From a virus (taxonomy: Duplodnaviria; Caudoviricetes): a stretch of 59,659 bases of DNA. The translations under genes were made by a program, and so were the position numbers. The notes beneath the pieces were generated by a model that searched no databases, was not told the origin of the DNA, and saw nothing but the letters and a program-made list of their open reading frames with translations. Shown here piece by piece: positions 652 to 58,552 of this stretch. Location of the stretch: positions 1 to 59,659 of the IMG/VR virus record IMGVR_UViG_3300027889_000037; one strand, given 5' to 3'. Each line of letters begins with the position of its first letter. Within the stretch, counting starts at the first letter, position 1.

Positions 652-1035
652 GCCTTTTTACGCGGATGGCCTGCGGCGAATGTGGTATTGAATTCGATGT
701 GCCGGAACATTTTTACAAAGAGAGAAAAGAGAACGGTAAAGGTTGGTACTGTCCGAATGGCCACTCTCGCGTGTTCCGAGAATCCGATCTGGATAAAATG
801 CGTCGCGAGCGCGATCAAGCCAAGCAGCAGTTGGCTCGTGTTGAGGAAGAAAAGCGTCTTGAATTTGGCGGCTAAGGAGCGCGAGATTAAGCGTATGAAG
901 AAGCGCTCGGCAGCGGGGACCTGCCCCTGCTGTTCACGAACCTTTTCCAACATGGCAACACACATGAAACGACAACATCCCGATTTCATCCGAGATACGG
1001 GCGCAAAAGTGATTCCGATGAAGGCTGTAAAATGA
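648..1035 (+). CDS. Zn-finger/coiled-coil phage protein split by a +1 frameshift near 864
   Basis: CxxC...CPNGH N-half (648-875) and CPCC...HxxxxH C-half (frame of 682-1035) join if one T of GAATTTGGCG is removed. Confidence 0.7.
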
Positions 1036-2042
1036 AGGTACTCCTGACGGGCGGACTGGGGTTCATCGGAAGGGCGTTTGCGAAACGCTTGCTGGATGCC
1101 GGCCACATAGTAACCATCGTGGACAACATGTATTCCGGTGTCGAGCTGGTCGATTGGATGTTTAAGCCCAACGCCTACGACCCGCAGACCAGATCCGTCC
1201 CCAACCTCCAGCTTATGATCGGCGACTGCCGCAGCTTCTTTGCCAGCGCGCCACCAGGTAGTCTCTGGTCCGCCTCCCGCTTCGACCTGATCATCCACTG
1301 TGCGGCAATCGTCGGCGGTCGGATCAAGATCGAGGACGATCCGCTTGAAGTGGCAACCGACCTTTCCATCGACTCGGAGTTTTTCCGCTGGGTGACCAAG
1401 GCAAATCCATCCCCGAAAGTGGTATATTTCTCATCGTCCGCGGTATATCCGTTGGAGCTGCAAACCCGCGAGAAGCATGTCGCACTGGCCGAAGCTTTCG
1501 TTGACCTCAACCAGAATCGTTGGAGTAAGCCGGATCAGACCTACGGCTTCGTGAAGTTTGCCGGCGAGTACCTGGCGAAGTTCGCGCACGAGAAATATGG
1601 CCTCGACGTTGCGATCTACCGGCCGTTCGGAGGGTACGGCGAAGACCAATCTCTGCACTATCCGTTCCCGAGCATCATCAAGCGCGTCGCGGACGGCGAG
1701 AACCCGGTGATGGTGTGGGGCTCGGGTTATCAGGAGCGCGACTTCATTCACGTCGATGACATCGTGGAGGCGGTGCTGACGACTTACGACAAGCTCAGCG
1801 GTAAGGTGCTGAATCTCGGCACCGGCATCCCGATTTCGTTCTTCAAATTGGCTGAGCTGGTCGTGGACAATTGGCGTACCAGCATGATGGATTCGCCAAG
1901 TGTTCGTAACGATCCTCTCAAACCTGGGGGGGTGTTCAGTCGCGTGGCCGACGTGCATGAAATGCACAAATTCTACAAGCACAAAATTCACTTGCCTGTT
2001 GGTATCAAGCGGGCACTTGACAGGGCCAAAGCGAAGGTGTAG
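1032..2042 (+). CDS. NAD-dependent epimerase/dehydratase (extended SDR)
   Basis: TGGLGFIG Rossmann motif, SSSAVY, YGFVK catalytic YxxxK, WGSGYQERDFIHVDD. Confidence 0.93.
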   Translation: MKVLLTGGLGFIGRAFAKRLLDAGHIVTIVDNMYSGVELVDWMFKPNAYDPQTRSVPNLQLMIGDCRSFFASAPPGSLWSASRFDLIIHCAAIVGGRIKIEDDPLEVATDLSIDSEFFRWVTKANPSPKVVYFSSSAVYPLELQTREKHVALAEAFVDLNQNRWSKPDQTYGFVKFAGEYLAKFAHEKYGLDVAIYRPFGGYGEDQSLHYPFPSIIKRVADGENPVMVWGSGYQERDFIHVDDIVEAVLTTYDKLSGKVLNLGTGIPISFFKLAELVVDNWRTSMMDSPSVRNDPLKPGGVFSRVADVHEMHKFYKHKIHLPVGIKRALDRAKAKV

Positions 2043-2056
2043 TTGATTGAACTACA
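2017..2056 (+). promoter_or_regulatory. Sigma70-type promoter with overlapping inverted repeat upstream of serine recombinase
   Basis: TTGACA(2017)-N17-TAGTTG(2040); TGTAGTT-N5-AACTACA inverted repeat 2038-2056. Confidence 0.6.
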
Positions 2057-2069
2057 TTGGGAGGCGGTG

Positions 2070-2765
2070 ATGTTTTTCATTTACGGCAGGACAAGCACGC
2101 TGGAACAGGCCGAAGCTGGCGCCGTTTCCATTCCCGAGCAGCTTCGCAAAGGCAAGGCGCTGGCGCAACTTCGCGGTGTTGCGGGAAAAGATTGCGTGAC
2201 CTTCGTGGATAAGGGCGTTTCCGGCTCGACGCCGCTCGCCTTTCGCCCGCAAGGTAAGGAGATGCTGGAGGCTGCGCAGCAAGGCGATTGTATTGTTAGT
2301 TCGAAGATGGACCGCCTGTTCCGTTCTGCTATTGATGCGCTCCAGACTGCCGACGATCTCAAGCAGCGCGGTGTTGATCTTATTCTAATCGACGTTTCGG
2401 CCGATCCGGTGACTAGCAACGGCACTGGCAAGCTCTTTTTCTCGATCCTTGCCGTCATGGCCGAGTTCGAGCGCGACCGCATCCGCGAGCGAACCGAGGA
2501 AGGCCGGCGCGGCAAGCGCGCCCGCCGCGGCTTCATGGGTGGTGGCGTGCCGATCGGGTTCAAGGTGCAAGGCAAAGGTCGCGAGGCCCAGCTTGAGGAA
2601 GACGAGCGCGAGCAGGCGGCGATTGCCAAGGCGCGCGAACTGGCCGAGGGTGGTCACGCGCCGGGTCGGATCGGGCGATATCTGACGAAATACTACCCGA
2701 CGAGATCGGGTCGCAAATGGCAATGCGTTCAGGTGCAGCGCATTTTGGCGCGAGTGGAGGCATGA
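2070..2765 (+). CDS. Serine recombinase (resolvase/invertase family)
   Basis: YGRTST catalytic Ser, DKGVSGS, RP, KMDRLFRS, AEFERDRIRERT; GGAGG RBS before ATG 2070. Confidence 0.92.
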   Translation: MFFIYGRTSTLEQAEAGAVSIPEQLRKGKALAQLRGVAGKDCVTFVDKGVSGSTPLAFRPQGKEMLEAAQQGDCIVSSKMDRLFRSAIDALQTADDLKQRGVDLILIDVSADPVTSNGTGKLFFSILAVMAEFERDRIRERTEEGRRGKRARRGFMGGGVPIGFKVQGKGREAQLEEDEREQAAIAKARELAEGGHAPGRIGRYLTKYYPTRSGRKWQCVQVQRILARVEA

Positions 2766-2884
2766 TGAGCGGATTTCCGCGCGCATCTTATTATTTTGCG
2801 CTGTTTTGGGGTTGCATCATGATAGTTGGCGGCTTGGCGGCATTGGTTTTTGCCGTTTCTGTAATTATGCACTAAGGAATAAAA

Positions 2885-4309
2885 ATGGGCGATCGCGCGA
2901 GTTCAATCAAAATGTACAACGCCGCGTTCGACGCGGTGCGCAACCAGAATTACAAGGACTGGGCCACCCACGCTTTCGGTCTCCTGCAATCCGCCTGCAT
3001 CGTCGATCCGACCATGGGGCAGGCGTGGGCCGACAACGCCAATTCCAACGGCGACATCAACCGGCTTCATGCGGCTGTTGCCTGCTACCGCCGCGCGCTA
3101 GACGGCGATCTTGGCACCGACAAGCAGATCGAAGTGCTGTCCAACATCTCCTGGCGCCTCAATCAGCTTGGCGAGCTTGAGGAAGCTCTGAAGTTCGCCC
3201 AGATGGCCGTCGAGCTAGGCCCGCACGAGGCGTACCCGTGGGTGAATCTGTCGCAAGCTCACGGCGCCTTTGGCCAGCGCCTAGCCGCGGTCGAGACGGC
3301 GCGCGAGGGCCATCGCCTCAAGCCCAACGATACCGCGACCCAGTTCAATCTCGCATTTGCGCTCCTGTTCAACGAGGAATACGCTGAGGGCTTCAAGTTT
3401 CTGGAGTCGCGGTTCGAGCATCGGCTGAAGAACTATCTCACCTATCCGTACCCGAAGTGGGAGGGCGAGAAGGACGCGATCGTGTTTCTCGTGGCCGATC
3501 AGGGCATGGGCGATACTCTTAGCTTCGCCCGCTTCCTCGACGCTGCGGCAAAGCGGGCCAAGTACATCCACGCCATGGTGCAACCGGTCCTGCTGCGCGC
3601 GTTCACCGAGGCGTTCGTGCATCTGCCCAACGTGAATTTCACGCCGACCTCGACCTCCTACCCGCCTGCCGATGCATGGACTACGTTCGTCTCGCTGCCC
3701 TACGCGCTCAAACTGACCGATCAAGAGATCAAGGACGCGCCGCATCCGAAGCTCCCGGTCTACGGCATGGCCGACACATGGAAGATGCCGGATATAAAGC
3801 TGCATATCGGCATCGCCTGGGCTGGCTCCGCGTTCAACGATCTCGACAAGTGGCGCTCATTTCCGCTCACTCATTTCCTCGATCTCTACAAGGTGCCCGG
3901 TATCCAGCTTTACTCGCTGCAAAAAGACGAGCGCACCCGAGATTTGAATGATTTTTGCTGCGAATCGCTTGTTCGGGATATGAGCCCGTGGATATCCGAT
4001 GCTGTCGATACAATATCTGTGCTCCAGAAGCTCGATCTTGTCATTTGCGCCGAGTCATTTCTCGCACATATTTGCGGCGCAATCGGCAAGGAGGTGTGGA
4101 TCCCGTATTCGTTCCACGCCCATGATTATCGTCTCGGTCACGACGGCAAATCGATGCTGTGGTACGGCAAGACGCACCGGTTGTTCTTGCAGGATCGCGA
4201 CATGCGGTGGGATAAAGTTTTTCAGCGCATCACACTGGCGCTAAGGGAGAAGGTCAATGGACTTGCCGTTGTTGATCCGCAAGCTAAAAGAAAAGTCGCG
4301 ATACGCTGA
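2885..4309 (+). CDS. TPR-repeat protein with C-terminal GT-B glycosyltransferase-like domain
   Basis: N-terminal TPR helices; DQGMGDTLSFARFL, IGIAWAGS, LYSLQK, LDLVIC motifs typical of TPR-glycosyltransferases. Confidence 0.85.
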   Translation: MGDRASSIKMYNAAFDAVRNQNYKDWATHAFGLLQSACIVDPTMGQAWADNANSNGDINRLHAAVACYRRALDGDLGTDKQIEVLSNISWRLNQLGELEEALKFAQMAVELGPHEAYPWVNLSQAHGAFGQRLAAVETAREGHRLKPNDTATQFNLAFALLFNEEYAEGFKFLESRFEHRLKNYLTYPYPKWEGEKDAIVFLVADQGMGDTLSFARFLDAAAKRAKYIHAMVQPVLLRAFTEAFVHLPNVNFTPTSTSYPPADAWTTFVSLPYALKLTDQEIKDAPHPKLPVYGMADTWKMPDIKLHIGIAWAGSAFNDLDKWRSFPLTHFLDLYKVPGIQLYSLQKDERTRDLNDFCCESLVRDMSPWISDAVDTISVLQKLDLVICAESFLAHICGAIGKEVWIPYSFHAHDYRLGHDGKSMLWYGKTHRLFLQDRDMRWDKVFQRITLALREKVNGLAVVDPQAKRKVAIR

Positions 4310-4493
4310 ATTGGCGTGGCAGGACGAGCGCAAGCCCGAATTCCTCGATCTGCACATTGTTCTGAAAGAGGCTGCGGAGCGGTTGTGCTATCCACCGCCC
4401 CTTATGGTTTCTGAAGGGATGGATGACGGGATTCTACACAACTACCGAGCGGTGGGCTACATTCACTACGGACCAGATGCCCCAAACCGTTGA
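4257..4493 (+). CDS. Hypothetical protein
   Basis: ORF with GGAG RBS bridging two genes of the operon. Confidence 0.55.
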   Translation: MDLPLLIRKLKEKSRYAELAWQDERKPEFLDLHIVLKEAAERLCYPPPLMVSEGMDDGILHNYRAVGYIHYGPDAPNR

Positions 4494-5289
4494 CATCAAT
4501 TTCGAGATCAACAAGCGCAAGTTTGCGTTCAAGATGACGCATGACCCGTCGTCCCTGCCCGACCGCGACATGATGCTGTGCATGGACCAGTTCGGTTGTC
4601 CCGAGCCCGAGGTCATGCATCTTCTGGTCCGCGTTTTTCGCCCCGGCGACTTCGCGATTGATGGTGGCGCCAACATTGGCTTCTTCACCATCGTCATGTC
4701 GAAGCTCGTCGATACGAACGGCATTGTGTTGGCGGTCGAACCGGGTGAGAACAACCTGCCCAAGCTGCGCGATAATCTCAAGCTCAACGGTCTAAAGAAC
4801 TTCGAGATTTGCAACCGTCCACTCTGGTCCTCCAACGAGGACGTAACGCTGCACTACAGCCAGCACGGCGGCATGAACTCGCTGAGCGCTCACCAGCCGA
4901 TGATGGGCAAGAAAATCCTGCAAGGCATCACGTTGAGTACGTGGCACACCACGCCACGCTTGATCAAGCTGGACATCGAGGGTGCCGAGGAACACGCATT
5001 GCGCGGCGCGCAGAAGCATCTGGTCAATGGCGTGCCTTACATTGTCTGTGAGTTGAACCTACCGGCGCTTAAGGGCCTCGGCTCGACCCAGGAGTCGCTC
5101 CGCAAGTTCATGCGCGAGTGGGGCTACTCAACCTTCATTCTGTTCCGCGATGGGCAACTGCCCTGCCTGATCCCGGAGAAGACCCAGATATTCGAGGCTG
5201 AGGACTACAATGGCACAGTTAACGTGCTATTCTCGACGGTCGAGGCGGTGAGCAATGTGTGGCCGAGAGCGGTGTTGAGATATGCCTGA
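4477..5289 (+). CDS. FkbM-family SAM-dependent methyltransferase
   Basis: IDGGANIGFFT, AVEP, LIKLDIEGAE motifs. Confidence 0.92.
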   Translation: MPQTVDINFEINKRKFAFKMTHDPSSLPDRDMMLCMDQFGCPEPEVMHLLVRVFRPGDFAIDGGANIGFFTIVMSKLVDTNGIVLAVEPGENNLPKLRDNLKLNGLKNFEICNRPLWSSNEDVTLHYSQHGGMNSLSAHQPMMGKKILQGITLSTWHTTPRLIKLDIEGAEEHALRGAQKHLVNGVPYIVCELNLPALKGLGSTQESLRKFMREWGYSTFILFRDGQLPCLIPEKTQIFEAEDYNGTVNVLFSTVEAVSNVWPRAVLRYA

Positions 5290-39714: not shown

Positions 39715-39903
39715 TCATTCGGCAACAACGGTTTCAAGAGCGCGTAAAGCATATCGCGCGTTTATTTCGCGCGTCGAAGCCTCGTTCACGGCTTTGTTTG
39801 CTGCCTGCAATTCCGCGATCACCTTAGATTGGTATTCGACCATGGCGGCATATGAGCGCTCGGCACATTCTAGTTCCAGTCTGGCGGCTTCAAGTTTTGT
39901 CAT
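39715..39903 (-). CDS. Coiled-coil hypothetical protein
   Basis: TGATG coupling to recombinase gene. Confidence 0.55.
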   Translation of the reverse strand: MTKLEAARLELECAERSYAAMVEYQSKVIAELQAANKAVNEASTREINARYALRALETVVAE

Positions 39904-40901
39904 CACGCCACCTTCTCGCTGCTCTTTTCCATCCGCATCCGCTGCACGGTATGGGTGTTCTCCCGGCTGGCGCGGCTGTAGTCCATTGTCTGCGATACGT
40001 CGCTGTGTGTAGCGGCATCGCGGACATGCGCAGCCTGGGCGCCCATGGCGATGGCTTCGCTGATCGCACCGGCCCGCGCGTCGCGGTTTTGCACATTCAA
40101 CGGCACGCCACACTCGGTCGCGATGATCCGCCATTCTTCGCGGAAGTCATCGGCTTTATATGGGAAGCCGGTGTATTCATCGATAATCACGGGGCCGCTC
40201 GCCGGCAGCAATAATCGATCGGCAGAGCATCCCGGCCACATATGCTCAAGCTCGGCCATGACCAGCGGCGCCAATGTCAGGTCCGGCTCGGATAGTTTCT
40301 TGCGCTTGCTCGTGACGTGATGGACGACAAAATCAGCGCCGATTTCTTCCCAGCGCAGACCCTTGAGCCACTTCATTGGACCTTTTCGCGGGTGCATCGA
40401 GCAAACGTCCGACAGGCCCGGTTCGCCAATCGGCAGCCATTCGCCGAGAACGTCCTTCTGCCGCCAAGTGCATTCAAATTGGAGGGCCTGTGCGAGCCCG
40501 ACCATCGGGAGGCGCGGGCGCGCGGCGTTGCAAATCGCGGTTGCTTGCTCGCGGGTGATGTGGACCGTTCGCGGCTTGCCGTTGGCGAAGCGGCCTTTGC
40601 TCAGTAGCAGCCCGAGGCGCTGGCAGGCTTCGTCATCGAGCGCGAAGAAGCCGAAGTTGGCGAGCGTGCGCAGCATCCCGATCAGCGCATGGCCCATCGA
40701 AACCTTCCGGCCGCCGTCGCTCCATTGCTGATGCCATTCGTAGATCGTCCGGCCCTTGATGGTCGCCACATCTACGTCGCCGTGGGCGCGCTCGATCTGT
40801 GTCATGAGCCGGACGTAGTATTGCCGCGTGCAGTATTCGAGCTTGGCGAAGTTCGATACTGGGTCGGTGCGGTAAGCGGACATGAGTTCATTGAGACGCA
40901 T
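39903..40901 (-). CDS. Tyrosine recombinase/integrase (no N-terminal arm-binding domain)
   Basis: R (CTWRQKD), K (TSKR), NRDARAG, ATHS, MDYSR catalytic-type residues. Confidence 0.8.
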   Translation of the reverse strand: MRLNELMSAYRTDPVSNFAKLEYCTRQYYVRLMTQIERAHGDVDVATIKGRTIYEWHQQWSDGGRKVSMGHALIGMLRTLANFGFFALDDEACQRLGLLLSKGRFANGKPRTVHITREQATAICNAARPRLPMVGLAQALQFECTWRQKDVLGEWLPIGEPGLSDVCSMHPRKGPMKWLKGLRWEEIGADFVVHHVTSKRKKLSEPDLTLAPLVMAELEHMWPGCSADRLLLPASGPVIIDEYTGFPYKADDFREEWRIIATECGVPLNVQNRDARAGAISEAIAMGAQAAHVRDAATHSDVSQTMDYSRASRENTHTVQRMRMEKSSEKVA

Positions 40902-41079
40902 AACCAGCCCTCACAGTAGCTCGATTTTGTATGCGACCGCGACGCAGGCGGGGTAACTCTGCCATTGCCTCAGCCTTGGCAATGATCTTATCCAGTCGCG
41001 CCAGTTCGCGCTTTTCCTCTGGCGTTAGATACGCCCGCCAGTCGCGTGCATTGGTTTTTGCCCTGCGTAAATCGCTCAT
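40888..41079 (-). CDS. Small basic hypothetical protein (probably leaderless)
   Basis: No RBS; TTGACT-N17-CACGTT promoter places +1 near the ATG. Confidence 0.6.
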   Translation of the reverse strand: MSDLRRAKTNARDWRAYLTPEEKRELARLDKIIAKAEAMAELPRLRRGRIQNRATVRAGYASQ

Positions 41080-41154
41080 GTGAGTAACGTGAACCTCGCT
41101 AGAGGATAAGTCAATAGGGGCTTGCAAATTATTTTGAGGGGTGTATATTGCTCT

Positions 41155-41293
41155 GATCGATCTACCCCTGCCGGTGGTCACGGCAATACCCAGGAGGCGG
41201 CCATGAAGTAACCCCATCCCTTTTCAGAATCTTGCAAGGTTTTGGAGTTTTAATCGGGCCGCTCGGAATGACCACCGGGCGGCCCTTGGTTTT
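41155..41293 (+). ncRNA. Putative small RNA carrying Met-Lys-stop minigene (41203-41211)
   Basis: TTGCAA-N16-TATATT promoter, 5-bp hairpin, AGGAGG, ATGAAGTAA, terminator 41256-41293; paralogous to 53398-53537. Confidence 0.65.
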
Positions 41294-41320
41294 GGCCGCT
41301 GCTACGCTCCCGACAGTACC

Positions 41321-41767
41321 TCAGTTAACCGCCAACTCCCACAGCGGCGGAAATAGATCGTCGGGTATGGCGAACATCCCCTGCTGGCCCCTATATGGAA
41401 TTGGCTCGGTCAGCAGATGAAAGTCGCTGCGCTCCCAAGCATAGCGGCCTTCCGAAAAATCTCCGCACTCGCGATCATCGTCATTCGCTGCTGTACACCC
41501 AAACAGTTCATGCACTGTCGGCTTGCAGGCAACGATCTTGACCGCGCCAATGATAGCGCCGCGCGGCAATTCCAGGCCCCAATGATTTCCCCAAATACCA
41601 TCACAGATTTCATCAAGGCGGTCGCCGCTGAAATCATCGATCCGGCGCTTGGCGGCATGAACGGCAAGCCATCCGCGATGCGAAGTGGGCCAGTGGCGCG
41701 TCTCATGGACTTTGGCGTCGGATAGCCAAAGCGACGCCCACGGTTGCCAGAGTGAAATTGCCTTCAT
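41321..41767 (-). CDS. ASCH domain protein
   Basis: MKAISLWQPWASL...K.HETRHW...RG.LAVHAA...PIPYRGQQG. Confidence 0.9.
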   Translation of the reverse strand: MKAISLWQPWASLWLSDAKVHETRHWPTSHRGWLAVHAAKRRIDDFSGDRLDEICDGIWGNHWGLELPRGAIIGAVKIVACKPTVHELFGCTAANDDDRECGDFSEGRYAWERSDFHLLTEPIPYRGQQGMFAIPDDLFPPLWELAVN

Positions 41768-41803: not shown

Positions 41804-42862
41804 TTAAGCCGCAGCCTCTTTACGTGCGGCGATCATGCCGCGCAGTTCTTGTTTACTCTCTGGGGACATCGAATAGCCGCGACCCCAATGGGTCTCAATT
41901 TGCAACCCATGCGGTTCAATCTTTGCTCTGATTTTGCAAACGAACACGTCCACAATTTTAATCTCTGGCGCATCATCCGCCCGATCCGAATAAAGGGCAG
42001 TCAAGATCGCCTCTTTGGACATGATGTCGCGCGAGAGCAACGCGGACACGACACGTTCCTCGCTTGCAGTCAGCTTTAGTTCCGGCGGCAACAGTTCTTT
42101 GCCGTTCATTGTTTCTTCAAGCATTCTAACACGTTCGCGCAATTCTTCATTTTCTTCCTCTACCAGAGAGCGACGCAAGGCAGGATCATGCTTGAAGCGT
42201 CCGAAACTCTCCCACGATTCGTTGATGGCCTCTGCCATATATTTGATGTGTTCGCCTAGCAGAGCAGAAGCCGAAACGGCTTCTTCATTGCTGTATTTTT
42301 GAACCCACTCGACAAGCTCACCAAGCGCACCATTTATTGGAATAGGCGCTGCATCGGCCAAGTCTGCGCGAAACTCGGCCACCTGATTGAAGATCGGAAC
42401 CAAGAACGACTTTGCGTTTTGAAACGCTGCAAGATGAGAATACTTGACCCGCCACGCGTCCACTTCGCGGAGTGCAGCCAAGATTTCATCGTTCGGCGAG
42501 CGGACAATTTCAATTGACCGCTCGTCCTCGTCCCAACCGGCCGCGTCGCCTTCGTGCTGCTTAACCGCAACACGGTAGGCTCGTGTCGCATATTCCTTGC
42601 CTTCGCTGACAAAGCGCACGCGCACAGCGTTTATCATGTGGTTGGCTTGGCCGACGCGATATTGATGGGCGGCTTTTTTATCGTCCCACTCAAAATAGCC
42701 GCGTAGCGGGCTGTTGGCGGAGTGGGCAGCCTGCACAACAGCTTCCGCCGTCACATCGCCATCTGTCGCAATCTCTTGGAGCACAGGGCCAATGGCCCGC
42801 GCATCGTCGTTGGAGAACGACGATCCAGTTAGGGCAAAGTATTCTTTGATCGATATAGTCAT
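41804..42862 (-). CDS. Two-domain protein: N-terminal phage domain (SPL..YFEWDD..AA..YR) fused to OmpR/CtrA-like winged-helix DNA-binding domain
   Basis: C-terminal PEIKIVDVFVCKIRAKI...IETHWGRGY closely resembles the CtrA C-terminus. Confidence 0.8.
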   Translation of the reverse strand: MTISIKEYFALTGSSFSNDDARAIGPVLQEIATDGDVTAEAVVQAAHSANSPLRGYFEWDDKKAAHQYRVGQANHMINAVRVRFVSEGKEYATRAYRVAVKQHEGDAAGWDEDERSIEIVRSPNDEILAALREVDAWRVKYSHLAAFQNAKSFLVPIFNQVAEFRADLADAAPIPINGALGELVEWVQKYSNEEAVSASALLGEHIKYMAEAINESWESFGRFKHDPALRRSLVEEENEELRERVRMLEETMNGKELLPPELKLTASEERVVSALLSRDIMSKEAILTALYSDRADDAPEIKIVDVFVCKIRAKIEPHGLQIETHWGRGYSMSPESKQELRGMIAARKEAAA

Positions 42863-43307
42863 GTCATTTCGATTGTCGTGTCGGCATTGCTACGCGCGTC
42901 TCTGCAACTCAAATCGGCTCTTTTGGTAAAGGGCCAAACAAAACATTTCTTCTCAGTTGTTCGGTTGTCCATTGTCGTCGCATGTAAGCTTTTCTTATCA
43001 AATGACAAAGGGACAAAACTTTTCATTTCATCGGTCGTGTCGTCTTTGCATCGGTTCTCGCGTGTCATCGGCTCGGCGGTTCTCGCTTCTGCTCTTATGA
43101 TAAATGGACAAACAATTCATTTGCTTTCGGATGTTTTGTCATCGGCTCTTCTCTCAGCAAGTCTCCTGGTAAATGGACAAACATTTCATTTCAGTTGACC
43201 GCTCGTCCTTTCAAAGCACATCAGGGATTTTGGCCTCTTTTCTTATATCTCGTCTGAGGTCTTCTGGTCGGTTCAACGCATAGCAAATCGACTCTGCTCT
43301 TGTGTTT
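42859..43307 (-). ncRNA. Pentamer-periodic non-coding array (6 blocks, 77 pentamers), candidate guide-RNA array
   Basis: On + strand 76/77 pentamers begin [TG][CG] (43 are TC); blocks at 42859, 42948, 43023, 43117, 43186, 43248. Confidence 0.85.
42924..43190. repeat. Four conserved linker repeats TGRYAAAKGGMCAAAC..WCATT separating array blocks
   Basis: Copies at 42924-42947, 43003-43027, 43098-43121, 43167-43190. Confidence 0.85.
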
Positions 43308-53068: not shown

Positions 53069-53320
53069 TCACTCTCCCCAATTAAACTGTTTCCCGTTCC
53101 GCAACTGGGCCTCGACGCCCGCACAGGTGTTGCGGTAGCGTTGCCAGACCGCGGGCTTGATCTTGCCAGACTTCTGCTTTCCCGCAATGTGCTTGGCGGT
53201 GCGGGGCGGGGTGAGCCCTTGTTCGGCCCACCAGATCGTCACAGCGCTATACCCGCTCAGTTTTGCCAACTCGGCCACCGACAGATTGAGAGATTCGCGC
53301 CATTGCTTCGCCTTGCTCAT
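53069..53320 (-). CDS. XRE/Cro-like HTH regulator (probably leaderless)
   Basis: WRESLNLSVAELAKLSGYSAVTIWWAEQG; TTGACA-N17-TAGAAA places +1 near the ATG. Confidence 0.8.
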   Translation of the reverse strand: MSKAKQWRESLNLSVAELAKLSGYSAVTIWWAEQGLTPPRTAKHIAGKQKSGKIKPAVWQRYRNTCAGVEAQLRNGKQFNWGE

Positions 53321-53397
53321 GGCTTACTTTCTACAGTCCAATAACAACCCTGTCAAGTATGCCTTGACTTTTATTTTTAGGAGCGTAGCCTAGTCGA

Positions 53398-53537
53398 GCA
53401 CAGTGCAAACCCCAAGCGGATGAAAGCCGCTGACCCAGGAGGCCGCCATGGTCAACTAACCCAGTTTAATTAAACCGGACTTTTGTAGAACTGAAATCTT
53501 GTGTGGGCGCTGCGGACTTTCACCGCGGCGCCCTTTG
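53398..53537 (+). ncRNA. Putative small RNA carrying Met-Val-Asn-stop minigene (53448-53459)
   Basis: TTGACT-N16-TAGCCT promoter, 5-bp hairpin, AGGAGG, ATGGTCAACTAA, terminator 53505-53537. Confidence 0.65.
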
Positions 53538-53539
53538 CA

Positions 53540-53617
53540 TAAGAAAAGGCCCCAGACCGCCGCAGGGCGATCAGGGGCCAGTCACACTCGTAAGGGAGTA
53601 GTCATCACAGTTCGGAC
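53540..53617 (-). ncRNA. Possible ~75-nt small RNA
   Basis: TTGACC-N17-CAGTCT promoter (53652-53624); GGCCCC..GGGGCC-TTTT terminator; no credible ORF. Confidence 0.35.
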
Positions 53618-53795
53618 GGGCTGAGACTGTCGTAGGTTCTGGCCGGGGTCAAGCAAAACCTTGACGGATTTGCGATTTGGGCTGAGTATGAAAAACCCCG
53701 CCACGGGGGCGGGGCTGATCTGGTGAGCGGTTGAGGAAGGGCGGTCGCACCCCTGATTTAGCCGCACAGCCGAACTTTGTCAACAGGTTGTGCCC

Positions 53796-54128
53796 ATGTC
53801 CTTAACCGCGTTTCTCAATTCTAAAGAAGCTCTGGCCGCTACCGAACAAGCCCACATTGCCGATTCGGCGTGGTTCATTCGGCACCCAGATCGTAAATTT
53901 CACCTCCGCGAGCCTTTTGTTGGCGAGTTTCCCTTCAATATCACCCCGCCGCCCGGCATTCGGTGTGTTGTGGTCTCGCAAATCGCTACTGGCCACCGCT
54001 ACCGCCAGATTGTCTATGTGACCAAATTGCTCGATACCGAGGATATTGCCCGCCTCGCCGCCGAAACCGCCTTTAGCTCGATCGTGCTGGTCGATACGCA
54101 AGACCCTCCCTCGAACGCGCGGCACTAA
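53796..54128 (+). CDS. Hypothetical protein
   Basis: DSAWFIRHPDRKFHLR...EF; upstream of primase. Confidence 0.65.
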   Translation: MSLTAFLNSKEALAATEQAHIADSAWFIRHPDRKFHLREPFVGEFPFNITPPPGIRCVVVSQIATGHRYRQIVYVTKLLDTEDIARLAAETAFSSIVLVDTQDPPSNARH

Positions 54129-54130
54129 CC

Positions 54131-56521
54131 ATGCCAACCCCAATCGATTTTCTTCGCCTTATCCTCCCGCCGGTCGGCCCCTACGCCTATCTGGTCAAGC
54201 CGGCGGGCCGCACCAAGCCGCAGAACGAGTTCGCCCCCACGATCGAGGCCCTGTGGCAACAGATGGCCGCCTGGGACGCCCGCGGCGCCGAGACGTGGCA
54301 CGCCTGCGCCTCGTTCAAACGCGCAGAGAACGACCCCAGAGGCACCAAACAAGCCGACAAGCGCCTCGGGCGCACACACCATAATGTGGCGTTACTGAAA
54401 ACCCTGCGGCTCGACCTCGATGCCGGCAACGGCAAGCCTTACCAAGACGCCGCAGCGGCCGGCGCGCAAGCGGTGGCGTTCGCCAGCGCGGCGCAGCTCC
54501 CCATGCCCATGCTGGTCGCCTCGGGGGGCGGTGCTCACGTTTATTGGCCATTGCACGAAGCTATCATGCCGAGCCAATGGAAGGTCTTAGCCAACAAGCT
54601 CAAACTGTTGTGCCGGCAGCATAATCTGCAAGCCGACCCAGCCGTTACGGCCGACGTGACGCGGGTGCTCCGAACGCCAGGCACGCACAGCCAGAAGCGC
54701 GGCGGTAAGTTAGTTCGGTGTTTTCAACTAGTTAAGCCATATGACTTAAATGATTTTGTTGGCTTAAACGTGGATATCGCCCAACTGGCGCAAGTCCCTG
54801 TGAAGGTTGACGTTCGGGTGCCGGAATACCTGCGAATCGCGGGGTTGCCGCGGCTGGCCGATCGCGCAGCCGAAGGAATGCGCGGGAAGGACGTTTTTGC
54901 CGAGGAAATAGCGGGGCAGTGTGGGCAGTTAGCGGCATTTCGTGACAGCCGTGGCGAGGTGCCCGAGCCGCTGTGGTACGCCGCGCTGGGCGTGTTGGCG
55001 TGGTGCGCCGATGGCGACGAGGCCGGCCATGCTTGGTCGAAGGATTATGATGGCTACACGCCCGAAGAAACGCAAACCAAGCTCGACCGGGCGCGCGAGC
55101 TAAGCGGGGCGACGCTGTGCGAGCGGTTCCACGGCTTGGCACCGGCCGCGTGCGAGGCTTGCCCGCTGTGGGGCAAAGTCAATTCACCAATCGGCGCCAT
55201 GCGCGGGGTGGTCAAGGTTGACCGCCCGGAGTCAGGCGAGACTCTTAATGGTCACGACGCGCTGCCGCCCATGTTTGCGGACGCCTCGCCGCAAACCGAA
55301 TTCATCCGATTTCCCGATGTGGATGGCAAGGGAACCATCCTCAAAACCTGCCGCAACGCGCGGGCTGCGATCAAGGCGTTAGGCGTCACGTGCGAATACG
55401 ATACCTTCCATAACAAAATGCTTCTCGGCGGCCAACCCATAAACCAGTACGCGGGCGAGCTGAGCGACGAGGCCACGCAAATGCTCCGGGTTATGATCGG
55501 GGAGCAATTCAACTTCGACCCTGGCCAGCCAAACACGCACGACGCCGCAGTGCAAGAGTGCCTGCAACACGCTTACGACCCGATCTTGGACTATCTCAAC
55601 GAGGTGCAATGGGACGGTCGGCCGCGGCTGGGGACGTGGCTTGCCGACTATCTGGGCGCCGACCGATCGCCACTCAACGCCGAGATCGGCACCCTTTGTC
55701 TCGTTGCTGCTGTGCGCCGTGCGCGCGTGCCAGGCGCCAAGTTTGACCAGATAACGGTGCTCGAAGGCCGTGAGGGAACCAAGAAAAGCGGAGCGATCGA
55801 GATATTGGCCGGTAGCGAGAATTTCAGCGATCAAACGATTCTAGGGCTGGACGACAAAGCACAACAGGAAATGGTGCAAGGGGTTTGGCTTTACGAAATC
55901 GCGGATCTGGCCGGCATCACCAAGGCAGAGGTGGAACGGGTTAAGGCTTTTGCGTCGCGCAAGGTGGACCGCGCCAGGCCGGCATACGGCCGATCAAGGG
56001 TAGATAGGCCGCGGCGCTGCGTTTTCTTTGCCACCACCAATAACGACACCTATCTAAAATCTCAAACCGGCAATCGACGGTTCTGGCCGGTACGGGCGCC
56101 GCGCGTGAACCTCGACGCATTGACGCGGGACAGAGACCAATTGTGGGCGCAAGCGGCTTACATAGAGCGGAGCGGCGCGAGCGTGTTCTTGCGCGAGGCG
56201 ATGTGGGGCGAGGTCGGAGCACTACAGGATAGCCGGCGCGATCATGACCCTTGGGACGATATTTTAAGGCACGTCAAAGGGGCGTTAAACACCGAGCAAA
56301 CGGAGTACCGAATCAGCACGCGAGATATTTTTGAATTGTGGCTCAGGGTCGGTGGAGACAAGCTCACAGACACTAGCGCTAAGCGCCTCTGTTACACCAT
56401 GACTAGGCTTGGATGGAACGGGCCAAAGGCGTTACGAATTAACGATGAAGTGGTGCGCGGATATTCGCGACCCAGTAACAGCGACGAGCACGTTACGTTA
56501 CATGAGGGCGAAACACCATAA
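54131..56521 (+). CDS. Primase-polymerase fused to VapE-type helicase
   Basis: LDLD, SGGGAHVYW, RVLRTPGT; GREGTKKS Walker A, FFATTN...GNRRFWPV. Confidence 0.9.
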   Translation: MPTPIDFLRLILPPVGPYAYLVKPAGRTKPQNEFAPTIEALWQQMAAWDARGAETWHACASFKRAENDPRGTKQADKRLGRTHHNVALLKTLRLDLDAGNGKPYQDAAAAGAQAVAFASAAQLPMPMLVASGGGAHVYWPLHEAIMPSQWKVLANKLKLLCRQHNLQADPAVTADVTRVLRTPGTHSQKRGGKLVRCFQLVKPYDLNDFVGLNVDIAQLAQVPVKVDVRVPEYLRIAGLPRLADRAAEGMRGKDVFAEEIAGQCGQLAAFRDSRGEVPEPLWYAALGVLAWCADGDEAGHAWSKDYDGYTPEETQTKLDRARELSGATLCERFHGLAPAACEACPLWGKVNSPIGAMRGVVKVDRPESGETLNGHDALPPMFADASPQTEFIRFPDVDGKGTILKTCRNARAAIKALGVTCEYDTFHNKMLLGGQPINQYAGELSDEATQMLRVMIGEQFNFDPGQPNTHDAAVQECLQHAYDPILDYLNEVQWDGRPRLGTWLADYLGADRSPLNAEIGTLCLVAAVRRARVPGAKFDQITVLEGREGTKKSGAIEILAGSENFSDQTILGLDDKAQQEMVQGVWLYEIADLAGITKAEVERVKAFASRKVDRARPAYGRSRVDRPRRCVFFATTNNDTYLKSQTGNRRFWPVRAPRVNLDALTRDRDQLWAQAAYIERSGASVFLREAMWGEVGALQDSRRDHDPWDDILRHVKGALNTEQTEYRISTRDIFELWLRVGGDKLTDTSAKRLCYTMTRLGWNGPKALRINDEVVRGYSRPSNSDEHVTLHEGETP

Positions 56522-56691
56522 AATGCTGGTAATCCAATGTAGTAACACCTGTTATATCTTAATCTATATAACCAATGGAGAGAGGAAAAGAAGAAGGGAG
56601 AAGCACGCATATGTGCGATGGATGTGAGTCAGTTAGCCCTATAGGAGAGTGGTGTTAAACCCGTATCAGGTGTAACGCAGAAAATCCCCAC

Positions 56692-56720
56692 TTGACTCCC
56701 CCTCTAGTAGAGAGTAAAAG
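56692..56720 (+). promoter_or_regulatory. Early promoter 1
   Basis: TTGACT-N17-TAAAAG with TAGAGAGTAAA. Confidence 0.7.
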
Positions 56721-56750
56721 AAAAGACGGTTTCAGCAATGGGAGAGTGAA

Positions 56751-57173
56751 ATGGCGATGGCAGAGCAAGACAGATACGCGCACGCGCGGTCAAACGCTAA
56801 GGGCTGGTTTGAGTCCATCGAGGAAATGCTGGCCGCGCAGAATGCGGCTGCGAAAGATGGCGGGATAGCCGCTATCGAGGAGTCCGAGCGCGCGGTGCAT
56901 GAAAGCGTGCTTTCGATCGAGGTTCGATCGGCTTGGGTATCGTGCGGTGATTGGGATCGGTTTCACTCCGACCGCGTGGCGCCGGACGAATACTGCATCC
57001 TGCTGAGCACTGGCGGCCCGGCGCTCAGGATCGTGGGCCAGCTCGACCAATACGGCCAGCCGAGCTCGGCGGAAATGCAGATGCAAGACTGGGGGATCGT
57101 TTGGGAACGCTACCCGGCGCCTGAGGCGACGCTTTTGGAGTTTGTTAGTCAGTTTTGCTTCTACAACGGCTAG
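56751..57173 (+). CDS. Acidic early hypothetical protein
   Basis: GGGAGAG RBS; LLSTGGPALRI...QDWG. Confidence 0.75.
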   Translation: MAMAEQDRYAHARSNAKGWFESIEEMLAAQNAAAKDGGIAAIEESERAVHESVLSIEVRSAWVSCGDWDRFHSDRVAPDEYCILLSTGGPALRIVGQLDQYGQPSSAEMQMQDWGIVWERYPAPEATLLEFVSQFCFYNG

Positions 57174-57254: not shown

Positions 57255-57476
57255 ATGACAATCCAGGTAGATCGAGCGAAGCAGCTCTTAGCGATTGCGG
57301 TACGGCAGAGCCGGGAAGGTCCGCGTTTCTTTGAGTGTGGCTGTTGCGGACACATGCACTCGCCTGACTTTTGGGGCGATTGCCGCCAAGATAGCGAACG
57401 CTTTACGTGCATGGAACTGGACGAGGTGTTCGGGGAGAATGCTTGGGAGGAAGTCGAGCAAGAGTCAGCGTGGTAG
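57255..57476 (+). CDS. Early hypothetical protein (CGCCG.MH)
   Basis: AGGAGG RBS. Confidence 0.7.
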   Translation: MTIQVDRAKQLLAIAVRQSREGPRFFECGCCGHMHSPDFWGDCRQDSERFTCMELDEVFGENAWEEVEQESAW

Positions 57477-57505
57477 TTGACAACCCCAATGATAGAGAGT
57501 AAAGA
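57477..57505 (+). promoter_or_regulatory. Early promoter 2
   Basis: TTGACA-N17-TAAAGA with TAGAGAGTAAA. Confidence 0.7.
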
Positions 57506-57540
57506 GTTAGGCGTGACGGATAAAGCAATGGGAGAGTGAC

Positions 57541-57882
57541 ATGCGGAAAGTCAGTTTTGAGCAAGCTTGCGCGCGTTTCGTCCATCGCTATACGATGGAT
57601 CATGTTCCACAATGGGCGCGGCGCGTGCGGGAGAACGGTAGTTTTTACGCGCCGCAGTTTGCCAGCGACCGCGAGTGGTATGAGCGCACGATTTTTCCAG
57701 GCGAGCCGGGCGTTCACGGCAACAGCTCGCATTGCTACACATCCGGGCAGACGTGGCCGCTCGGGCAATCGCTGGCGCGGCCCTATAGGGGCAAGGCGGC
57801 TTACTTGTCGCGCGATGTGGCGACTAATACGCCGCAGATGGTTATCGACCGCGCGAAAGAGGACTTGTGCCTAGCGCAATAA
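57541..57882 (+). CDS. Early hypothetical protein
   Basis: GGGAGAG RBS; HRYTMDHVPQWA...YAPQFASDREW. Confidence 0.75.
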   Translation: MRKVSFEQACARFVHRYTMDHVPQWARRVRENGSFYAPQFASDREWYERTIFPGEPGVHGNSSHCYTSGQTWPLGQSLARPYRGKAAYLSRDVATNTPQMVIDRAKEDLCLAQ

Positions 57883-58520: not shown

Positions 58521-58523
58521 CGC

Positions 58524-58552
58524 TTGACTCTCGACCTGATAGAGAGTAAAGA
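58524..58552 (+). promoter_or_regulatory. Early promoter 4
   Basis: TTGACT-N17-TAAAGA with TAGAGAGTAAA. Confidence 0.7.

Follow-up and report, generated by a model that had tools for sequence, protein, structure and literature searches.

Why should a phage keep, at two places in its genome, a strong ribosome-binding site and a start codon that are followed almost at once by a stop codon? The question is raised by a stretch of viral DNA, referred to here as the window, which covers an entire virus record of 59,659 bases and is about 92% complete as estimated by CheckV. It belongs to a temperate phage from soil, and the one sequencing run that contains it is a soil metagenome of DNA. Pfam and PHROG scans, which took in 38 of the 82 open reading frames (ORFs) called in the window, find structural genes, on the + strand, as far as about 37 kb. 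From 53320 down to 41321 runs a long leftward operon. It begins with an XRE-type helix-turn-helix (HTH) gene, downstream of which, on the same strand, lie genes matching DNA polymerase A, a PD-(D/E)XK exonuclease and an SNF2 helicase, and it also holds a winged-helix regulator. A tRNA scan found no tRNA genes in the window. The genes that flank the two elements are as follows.

39903-40901, - strand: tyrosine integrase (phrog_1, E 2.6e-7)
40888-41079, - strand: 63-aa gene, divergent from RNA 1 and overlapping the start of the integrase gene
53069-53320, - strand: XRE-family HTH gene, 83 aa (Pfam HTH_31, E 5.4e-7; HTH_3, E 0.0022)
53790-54128, + strand: 112-aa gene, which opens the rightward block
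54131-56521, + strand: VapE-type primase/helicase, within the rightward block

The RNA units occupy both divergent control points of the genome. Copy 1, or RNA 1, has on one side the pair formed by the 63-aa gene and the integrase and on the other the point where the leftward operon ends; copy 2, or RNA 2, is flanked by the HTH gene and by the rightward block. Copy 2 had been described, from its letters alone, as a minigene RNA, and each of the elements named in that sequence-only reading was recovered at its place when the sequence was checked.

53364-53540, + strand: RNA 2 unit, a paralogue of copy 1 (41122-41295, + strand)
53364-53391, + strand: promoter-like boxes, TTGACT (53364-53369), 16 nt, TAGCCT (53386-53391)
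53409-53413, + strand: ACCCC, read from the sequence
53415-53431, + strand: 5' hairpin of 5 bp, AGCGG / 7-nt loop / CCGCT, present in the minimum free energy (MFE) fold
53433-53450, + strand: conserved 18-mer ACCCAGGAGGCSGCCATG, comprising ACCC, the Shine-Dalgarno (SD) sequence AGGAGG (53437-53442), a 5-nt spacer and ATG (53448-53450)
53448-53459, + strand: mini-ORF, ATG GTC AAC TAA (fMet-Val-Asn), then CCC
53505-53540, + strand: terminator-type hairpin, with an 11-bp GC-rich stem (53505-53515/53523-53533) that includes one G-U pair, and a short T tract

The promoter-like boxes align with the TTGCAA/TATATT of copy 1. They were not called by the consensus scanner, which found no promoter in 53200-53850, and the -10 box matches at three of six positions. 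The terminator likewise stayed below the scanner's call, since too few T residues follow the stem. That both signals are sub-threshold counts against taking copy 2 for a mini-ORF RNA. In copy 1 the corresponding signals are called.

41122-41295, + strand: copy 1 (RNA 1), whole unit
41122-41149, + strand: promoter, TTGCAA-16-TATATT, 9/12 matches, called by the consensus scanner
41169-41185, + strand: 5' hairpin
41188-41205, + strand: 18-mer, with one mismatch to that of copy 2 (17/18 identical)
41203-41211, + strand: mini-ORF, ATG AAG TAA
41256-41285 plus T tract, + strand: terminator, called by the consensus scanner

Are the two units truly related? A search for the 18-mer with up to three mismatches found exactly two sites in the window, a number of matches reached in none of 100 shuffles. 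The copies align over 220 columns with a mean identity of 74%, promoter region included, and the features brought into register are, on the opposite strand, the -35 box GTCAA and, on the RNA strand, the promoter, the hairpin with ACCCC before it, the 18-mer, the terminator, and the last sense codon together with TAA and CCC. The earlier proposal of paralogy therefore holds, and a chance match is excluded. The ORF has one sense codon in copy 1 and two in copy 2. AAG TAA CCC in the one and AAC TAA CCC in the other are common ground, so the stop codon is older than the duplication. A regular-expression scan of the window returned three intergenic sites with a strong SD and a mini-ORF, among which these two copies alone have both AGGAGG and ATG; at 56643 there is a third, weak candidate that begins with GTG.

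Structure was assessed on an alignment of five full-length homologues, namely copy 1, copy 2 and the loci L016, L185 and L168. Invariant columns concentrate in the 18-mer and TAACC, the flanks being divergent, and the block from SD through ATG to stop is the best-conserved part. Compensatory changes are seen in 8 of 21 pairs, a count reached in none of 500 shuffles, with slid controls giving 0-3 pairs. The 5' hairpin contributes three of its five pairs, with 100% of cells able to pair, as in AGCGG/CCGCU of L016 vs GGCGA/UCGCC of L185, and the terminator hairpin contributes 5 of 12. Between copy 1 and copy 2 alone, both sides of the 5' hairpin differ at two of five pairs, and the count of three reached with the added homologues upholds the suggestion that this hairpin is under structural selection. 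Single-sequence folds are modestly better than shuffles (z = -2.5 and -1.7). The terminator is present in the MFE and centroid folds of both copies, with no competing helix or antiterminator.

These properties allow one to consider a base-pairing small RNA (sRNA), in which the C-rich stretches (ACCCC, UAACCC and so on), or some other part, would act as a seed and the SD-AUG-stop would merely protect the molecule. The size of copy 1, together with its own promoter, terminator hairpin and U tail, fits the look of a bacterial sRNA, and a C-rich segment follows the stop in most members. Against this, the best-conserved block is the SD-AUG-stop and not a candidate seed. Among 83 initiation regions of the phage, none pairs better with the RNAs than with their shuffled versions: the best predicted pairings reach -49.7 and -47.9 kcal/mol, and the medians for the shuffles are -52.3 and -48.9. 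The finding, described below, that three different stop codons occupy one position is not expected of a pairing seed. We consider an sRNA of this type distinctly improbable.

Relatives were sought in several collections. Rfam release 15 gave no matches in the window at the gathering threshold, and at E <= 5 six loci gave three matches, none of them at the element. Nucleotide searches (blastn) of cultured phages found no match to either locus or to the L013-type region described below, and those of plasmids found no match. An exact scan of IMG/VR with the 18-mer gave 16 loci, of which L004 and L005 are identical in sequence. In eight of these 16 viral loci a stop follows after 0-2 sense codons: the ATG is followed immediately by TGA in L011 and L012 and by TAA in L013, L016 and L019, whereas L008 has one sense codon, L015 has two, and L009 has one, within a 266-aa ORF, which could be a chance match. 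A variant of the query with an A/T change in the spacer found five viral loci with two members, the start-stop L167 and L168, an orthologue of copy 1. A metagenome scan, which allowed a gap of 0-6 nt before TAACC, added the start-stops L171, L176, L185 and L187 and the copy 1 orthologues L174/L177. It gave 18 loci in all, with gaps of 0 (4 loci), 1 (3), 2 (4), 3 (5), 4 (2), 5 (0) and 6 (0). The other 12 loci are unrelated, and L175, L181 and L188 at gap 3, with three of the four at gap 2, are repeated or coding sequence, so this gap distribution gives no clean test of frame.

Altogether ten relatives have the start codon directly before a stop (L011, L012, L013, L016, L019, L167, L171, L176, L185 and L187). 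TAACCG is common to seven of the eight TAA start-stops, and the core is thus about 24 nt. TAA, TAG and TGA are all present as stops among the relatives, and the use of three types indicates selection on the reading of a stop rather than on one sequence. The sequence-only reading had left room for a known leader RNA that had lost its gene, or for an element without other instances; an Rfam family is absent and further instances exist.

Ordinary genes may equally begin at the 18-mer, and this counts against the mini-ORF reading. A bacterial scan with one genome per species gave at least 119 loci, and among the 119 matches listed 113 open ORFs of at least 20 codons, four open ORFs of 7-19 codons and two are start-stops, both of these in Novosphingobium and homologous to the viral L013. 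Short ORFs are thus found at 8 of 16 viral loci vs 2 of the 119 bacterial matches listed (Fisher p = 2e-7). A further bacterial scan gave five loci, three in Novosphingobium and two in Bradyrhizobium; the Bradyrhizobium pair, whose flanks are conserved between both genomes, was taken as chance matches within a gene and set aside. When a 38-nt core query was run against phages, 17 records were matched, the best being the Pseudomonas phages PaMx11 and Ab19. These match the copy 2 core at 29 of 32 positions, carry TAC where copy 2 has TAA, and were rejected as members because the match is an ordinary annotated gene start.

Such gene starts are what one would expect if the elements were neutral remnants, that is, what was left of a gene (promoter, ribosome-binding site and first codons) after deletion of its body, duplicated once in this phage. 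The commonness of this type of ribosome-binding site at genuine gene starts, and the PaMx11/Ab19 match with TAC in place of TAA, are in keeping with that view. It is countered by the stop and CCC that both copies share from before their duplication, by an SD-AUG-stop that is invariant where flanks diverge and hairpins covary, and by immediate stops of three kinds kept by independent phages. A remnant is accordingly very improbable.

A covariance model, R1, run on 63 sources (520,725 bases), recovered the five sequences from which it was built, L174, L176 and weak core-only matches, and found no new full-length copies near relatives of the integrase or primase in those sources. Five whole records of related phages hold one copy, in G001, and a scan for the promoter pattern found L168 and L192 only. 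Literature searches, supplementary files aside, returned papers on CreT, bar and intragenic start-stops and no phage family of this design.

The neighbourhood of copy 1 shows that the unit can be exchanged. L155/L192 share with the window the divergent promoter, part of an integrase gene and a 63-aa gene that is 100% identical. From the -10 box to the motif ACCTCAGTTAACC, L155 holds a cassette that is unrelated in sequence to copy 1. It follows the same plan, with AGGAGG, a 5-nt spacer, ATG with four codons (Thr-Pro-Gly-Gly), TAA and a T-tailed GC hairpin; the cassette pattern is unique in IMG/VR. Different mini-ORF cassettes are therefore exchanged at one locus, and the same design in unrelated sequence is a further point against a remnant. 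In G001 (L156/L168) a 66-aa HTH_3 gene diverges from the copy 1 orthologue, which adjoins the motif ACCTCAGTTAACC. Most other integrase relatives, close ones included, are without the cassette, which is thus dispensable, and this is a point against the mini-ORF reading.

41318-41329: motif ACCTCAGTTAAC, directly after RNA 1, a candidate attP core

The form ACCTCAGT(T/A) recurs beside the integrase in about ten related phage loci (L142-L163), at the point where phage similarity ends, and is likely to be the attP core. If so, RNA 1 would lie at the very end of the prophage. Prophage ends are typical sites of accessory 'moron' genes.

On the other side of each unit stands a small divergent gene. 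At copy 2 the space between the HTH gene and the RNA contains the following.

53328-53356, - strand: putative promoter of the HTH gene, read from the sequence as TTGACA, 17 nt, TAGAAA, 7 nt, ATG
53352-53368: 17-bp palindrome, GTCAAG-N5-CTTGAC, formed from two back-to-back -35 boxes; the scanner reports a 6-bp stem

The HTH-gene promoter was missed by the consensus scanner because the last base of its -10 box is other than T. The distance from promoter to ATG makes a leaderless HTH mRNA plausible. The palindrome, parts of which (GTCAA and CTTG) are kept in copy 1 and L168, is a candidate operator, and the HTH protein might repress the RNA promoter through binding in this region. The layout in which a small regulator and a mini-ORF RNA diverge, which had been put forward as a repeated module, does recur, in copy 1, copy 2, G001 (L156/L168) and L155. 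The 63-aa protein of copy 1 has 18 relatives, most of them nameless, and every source name given is 'hypothetical protein'. The element is absent from the 166 nt of upstream sequence available for L020, a relative of the HTH protein at 78% identity.

What, then, might such a unit do? A strong, exposed ribosome-binding site, an AUG, a near-immediate stop of any kind and stable hairpins argue together for an RNA whose task requires a bound ribosome and no translation product. Our preferred reading, offered tentatively and at somewhat less than an even chance, is that RNA 2 belongs with lambda bar and CreT as a mini-ORF RNA that is autonomous and engages ribosomes, that it is probably under HTH control and that it acts on translation in trans. 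RNA 2 (about 53398-53540, + strand) and copy 1 would be self-contained RNA genes, each with its own sigma-70-type promoter. The exposed and near-perfect ribosome-binding site (AGGAGG, a 5-nt spacer and AUG) would cause the RNA to be bound and 'translated', and the RNA would act through this and not through an encoded product. Ribosomes would initiate, elongate by 0-2 steps and then either terminate or fall off, repeatedly, on a stable RNA, so that components of initiation would be tied up, and possibly also tRNA-Lys (copy 1) or tRNA-Val/Asn (copy 2) in the form of short peptidyl-tRNAs. The timing of RNA synthesis would probably be set by the divergent small DNA-binding gene. For both RNAs we infer transcription, ribosome binding, the effect on translation and HTH control from the features of the DNA.

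Phage precedents exist in the lambda bar minigenes, barI and barII, which consist of an SD, AUG, one sense codon and a stop. They are embedded in long early transcripts, their effect (peptidyl-tRNA drop-off and starvation for tRNA under limiting Pth) is visible in Pth-deficient hosts, and barI adjoins the integrase gene and att. With AUG AAG UAA, copy 1 has the single sense codon of a bar site, whereas copy 2 has two, and copy 1 also shares the position of barI, beside an integrase gene and a candidate for the att core. In contrast to the bar sites, each of the present RNA units is furnished with a promoter of its own, a terminator and a 5' hairpin that covaries, and conservation extends to the unit as a whole. 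One minigene study describes faster ribosome recycling and peptidyl-tRNA drop-off on shorter minigenes, with inhibition rising down to two codons (PMC2490762).

CreT RNA toxins, with the minigenes beside them, are the nearest systems defined by experiment. CreTA modules are described in Haloarcula, Halobacterium, Acinetobacter and Pseudomonas aeruginosa, and the excerpted accounts state that CreT acts as RNA and not as a peptide, that its toxicity requires the SD, the mini-ORF and a stable hairpin, and that Acinetobacter creT is divergent from the repressor gene creA (bioRxiv 10.64898/2026.06.02.729485; PMC10097628; PMC8501985). As far as those accounts go, the likeness is that of a small RNA in which a strong SD and an efficient AUG open a mini-ORF of few codons, together with a stable GC-rich hairpin. 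Here AGGAGG, a 5-nt spacer, ATG and one or two sense codons are followed in both copies by a covarying 11-bp GC hairpin. Two features of CreT are lacking. The first, in the excerpts, is a pair of rare codons (AGA, AUA) or Pro-Pro after the start. Neither copy has a rare-codon pair or Pro-Pro, and AAG, GTC and AAC are preferred codons in this phage (67% of Lys, 34% of Val, joint highest, and 62% of Asn, respectively). The second is repression by CreA-Cascade in a cas locus; here the neighbour is an HTH gene, and no Cas families are among the Pfam/PHROG matches of the 38 scanned proteins (of 82 called ORFs). The phage RNA family also differs from CreT in being phage-borne, in having relatives with no sense codon and in showing no sequence relationship. 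As its codons are common rather than rare, RNA 2 is not a classical tRNA-sequestering CreT.

The suggestion in the sequence-only reading that different codons address different tRNAs does not fare well. The codons are preferred ones, and the many relatives that pass from ATG directly to a stop, without any elongator codon, argue against tRNA trapping, so the addressing of elongator tRNAs cannot be the common function of the family. A weaker form of the idea is kept alive by the four-codon ORF of L155 at the copy 1 locus.

Two further kinds of element bind ribosomes without yielding a protein. The 5' ribosome-binding mRNA stabilizers of Gram-positive bacteria and phage SP82, known as STAB-SD, have a strong SD near the 5' end at which a ribosome is bound. 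They are not known to need a start or a stop codon, whereas both the AUG and the stop are conserved in the phage RNA family. Start-stops have been mapped in E. coli by Ribo-RET (Meydan et al.); they comprise an SD-like sequence and AUG-stop, bind ribosomes, and are situated within protein genes, where they have a modest tuning effect on the host ORF (bioRxiv 10.1101/520783). The ten start-stop relatives share the AUG directly before a stop. In contrast to the Ribo-RET sites, the phage elements are intergenic and often stand-alone RNA units, and the two copies in the window carry one and two sense codons.

The E. coli start-stops, documented as tuning expression (bioRxiv 10.1101/520783), lend weight to a different explanation, in which the element loads ribosomes in cis and so stabilizes the RNA, opens structure or feeds re-initiation, or modulates read-through of the terminator into the rightward operon (53790-54128, 54131-56521). 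Copy 2 points at that operon, which, given that no promoter was called in 53200-53850, may rely on transcription that passes through a terminator whose T tract is weak. L011, L012 and L019 sit 50-90 nt upstream of a gene in a leader-like position, which also counts against the mini-ORF reading, and the L176 element lies between two terminators within an operon. In L011/L167 and in the L013 group a 5-bp hairpin stands 6-7 nt past the stop, within the ribosome footprint, and is GCUCG/CGAGC in one and GCGCG/CGCGC in the other. On the other hand, copy 1, L016, L185 and L168 each form a closed unit with a strong terminator, downstream of which no same-strand gene lies, the terminators of both copies fold without a competing antiterminator, the distance from AUG to terminator varies from about 20 to 57 nt, and the primase relatives L140 and L141 are without the element. 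A transcription attenuator with a leader peptide would call for alternative pairings of terminator and antiterminator under control of the leader ORF, ahead of a regulated gene; copy 2 does have a same-strand operon downstream of it, and copy 1 has none. Overall, the family is mixed, some members being closed units with terminators and others leader-like, and a role in cis, the main rival to our preferred reading, strikes us as possible, if rather unlikely.

A bolder version of action in trans can also be put forward. These RNA genes might be 'moron' genes that form pairs of a protein repressor and an RNA toxin, in which the DNA-binding protein silences a mini-ORF RNA that poisons translation; we regard this as unlikely. 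Loss or inactivation of the repressor, by prophage induction or by an anti-repressor of another phage, would then allow the RNA to flood the ribosomes and turn host translation off, either in host takeover or as a prophage-encoded guard that acts by abortive infection. The 'warhead' of each unit, its mini-ORF, would be exchangeable (Lys; Val-Asn; Thr-Pro-Gly-Gly; or none), the variants being found at one locus or in related units.

RNAs that act through being translated, and not through what they encode, are known from few cases, namely lambda bar, the CreT toxins and the E. coli start-stops. What is new here is a conserved, covarying and apparently self-contained phage version, with start-stop relatives and an allelic swap of cassettes. 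The family is absent from Rfam, and annotation based on proteins is blind to it. Should the preferred reading be confirmed, mini-ORF RNAs would be selected accessory genes of phages and not accidents, and they would offer a compact natural system for the effect of a ribosome parked on a start-stop on the cell or on the transcript. If the pairing of repressor and toxin were true, CreT-like RNA toxins would be a general phage tool that is independent of CRISPR.

The relatives also occupy varied surroundings of interest in their own right. The order in L011 is a cI-like repressor gene (HTH plus S24 peptidase), promoter, tRNA-Met(CAT), start-stop and gene, and the tRNA-Met(CAT), at L011:871-946(-), ends 5 nt before the start-stop motif. 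The L008 element is found between a portal gene and a MazG gene. In the L013 group the element lies between genes for C5 and N6/N4 DNA methylases, and about 110 nt after the start-stop are conserved, being nearly invariant in L013:2309-2504(-), L187, L066, L100 and L194, which are Novosphingobium prophages and related viral contigs. This block is probably a larger unannotated structured RNA, although the variation is too small for its fold to be defined. In L171 an Acb3-type inhibitor of CBASS (L171:9193-9969(-), Pfam E 1e-42) is encoded just upstream of a start-stop and a DNA methylase gene, and this element is thus in a counter-defence neighbourhood.

Several other features of the window were recorded. 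An accessory block at 1032-5289 encodes a nucleotide-sugar epimerase, a serine recombinase/invertase (2043-2765), a TPR protein and an FkbM-type methyltransferase. Direct repeats are clustered at 42857-43213, upstream of the winged-helix (Trans_reg_C) gene at 41804-42862(-), and fall into the families D1, D3 and D10, with four repeats of about 50 nt, three of 35 nt and one 22-mer; this array looks iteron-like and could be an origin or an array for binding a regulator. A promoter-like 28-mer occurs three times (56691-56753, 57476-57543 and 58523-58550), with TTGAC... and then TAGAGAGTAAA. All three occurrences precede small rightward genes, two are followed by a conserved ribosome-binding block ending in ATG, and the repeats may represent a repeated middle or late promoter module. 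Finally, between RNA 2 and the gene at 53790, the minus strand carries terminator-like hairpins with T tails at 53549-53568 and 53695-53710 and a perfect TTGACA near 53775-53780, which together hint at a short RNA that would run leftward, antisense to the rightward operon's leader.
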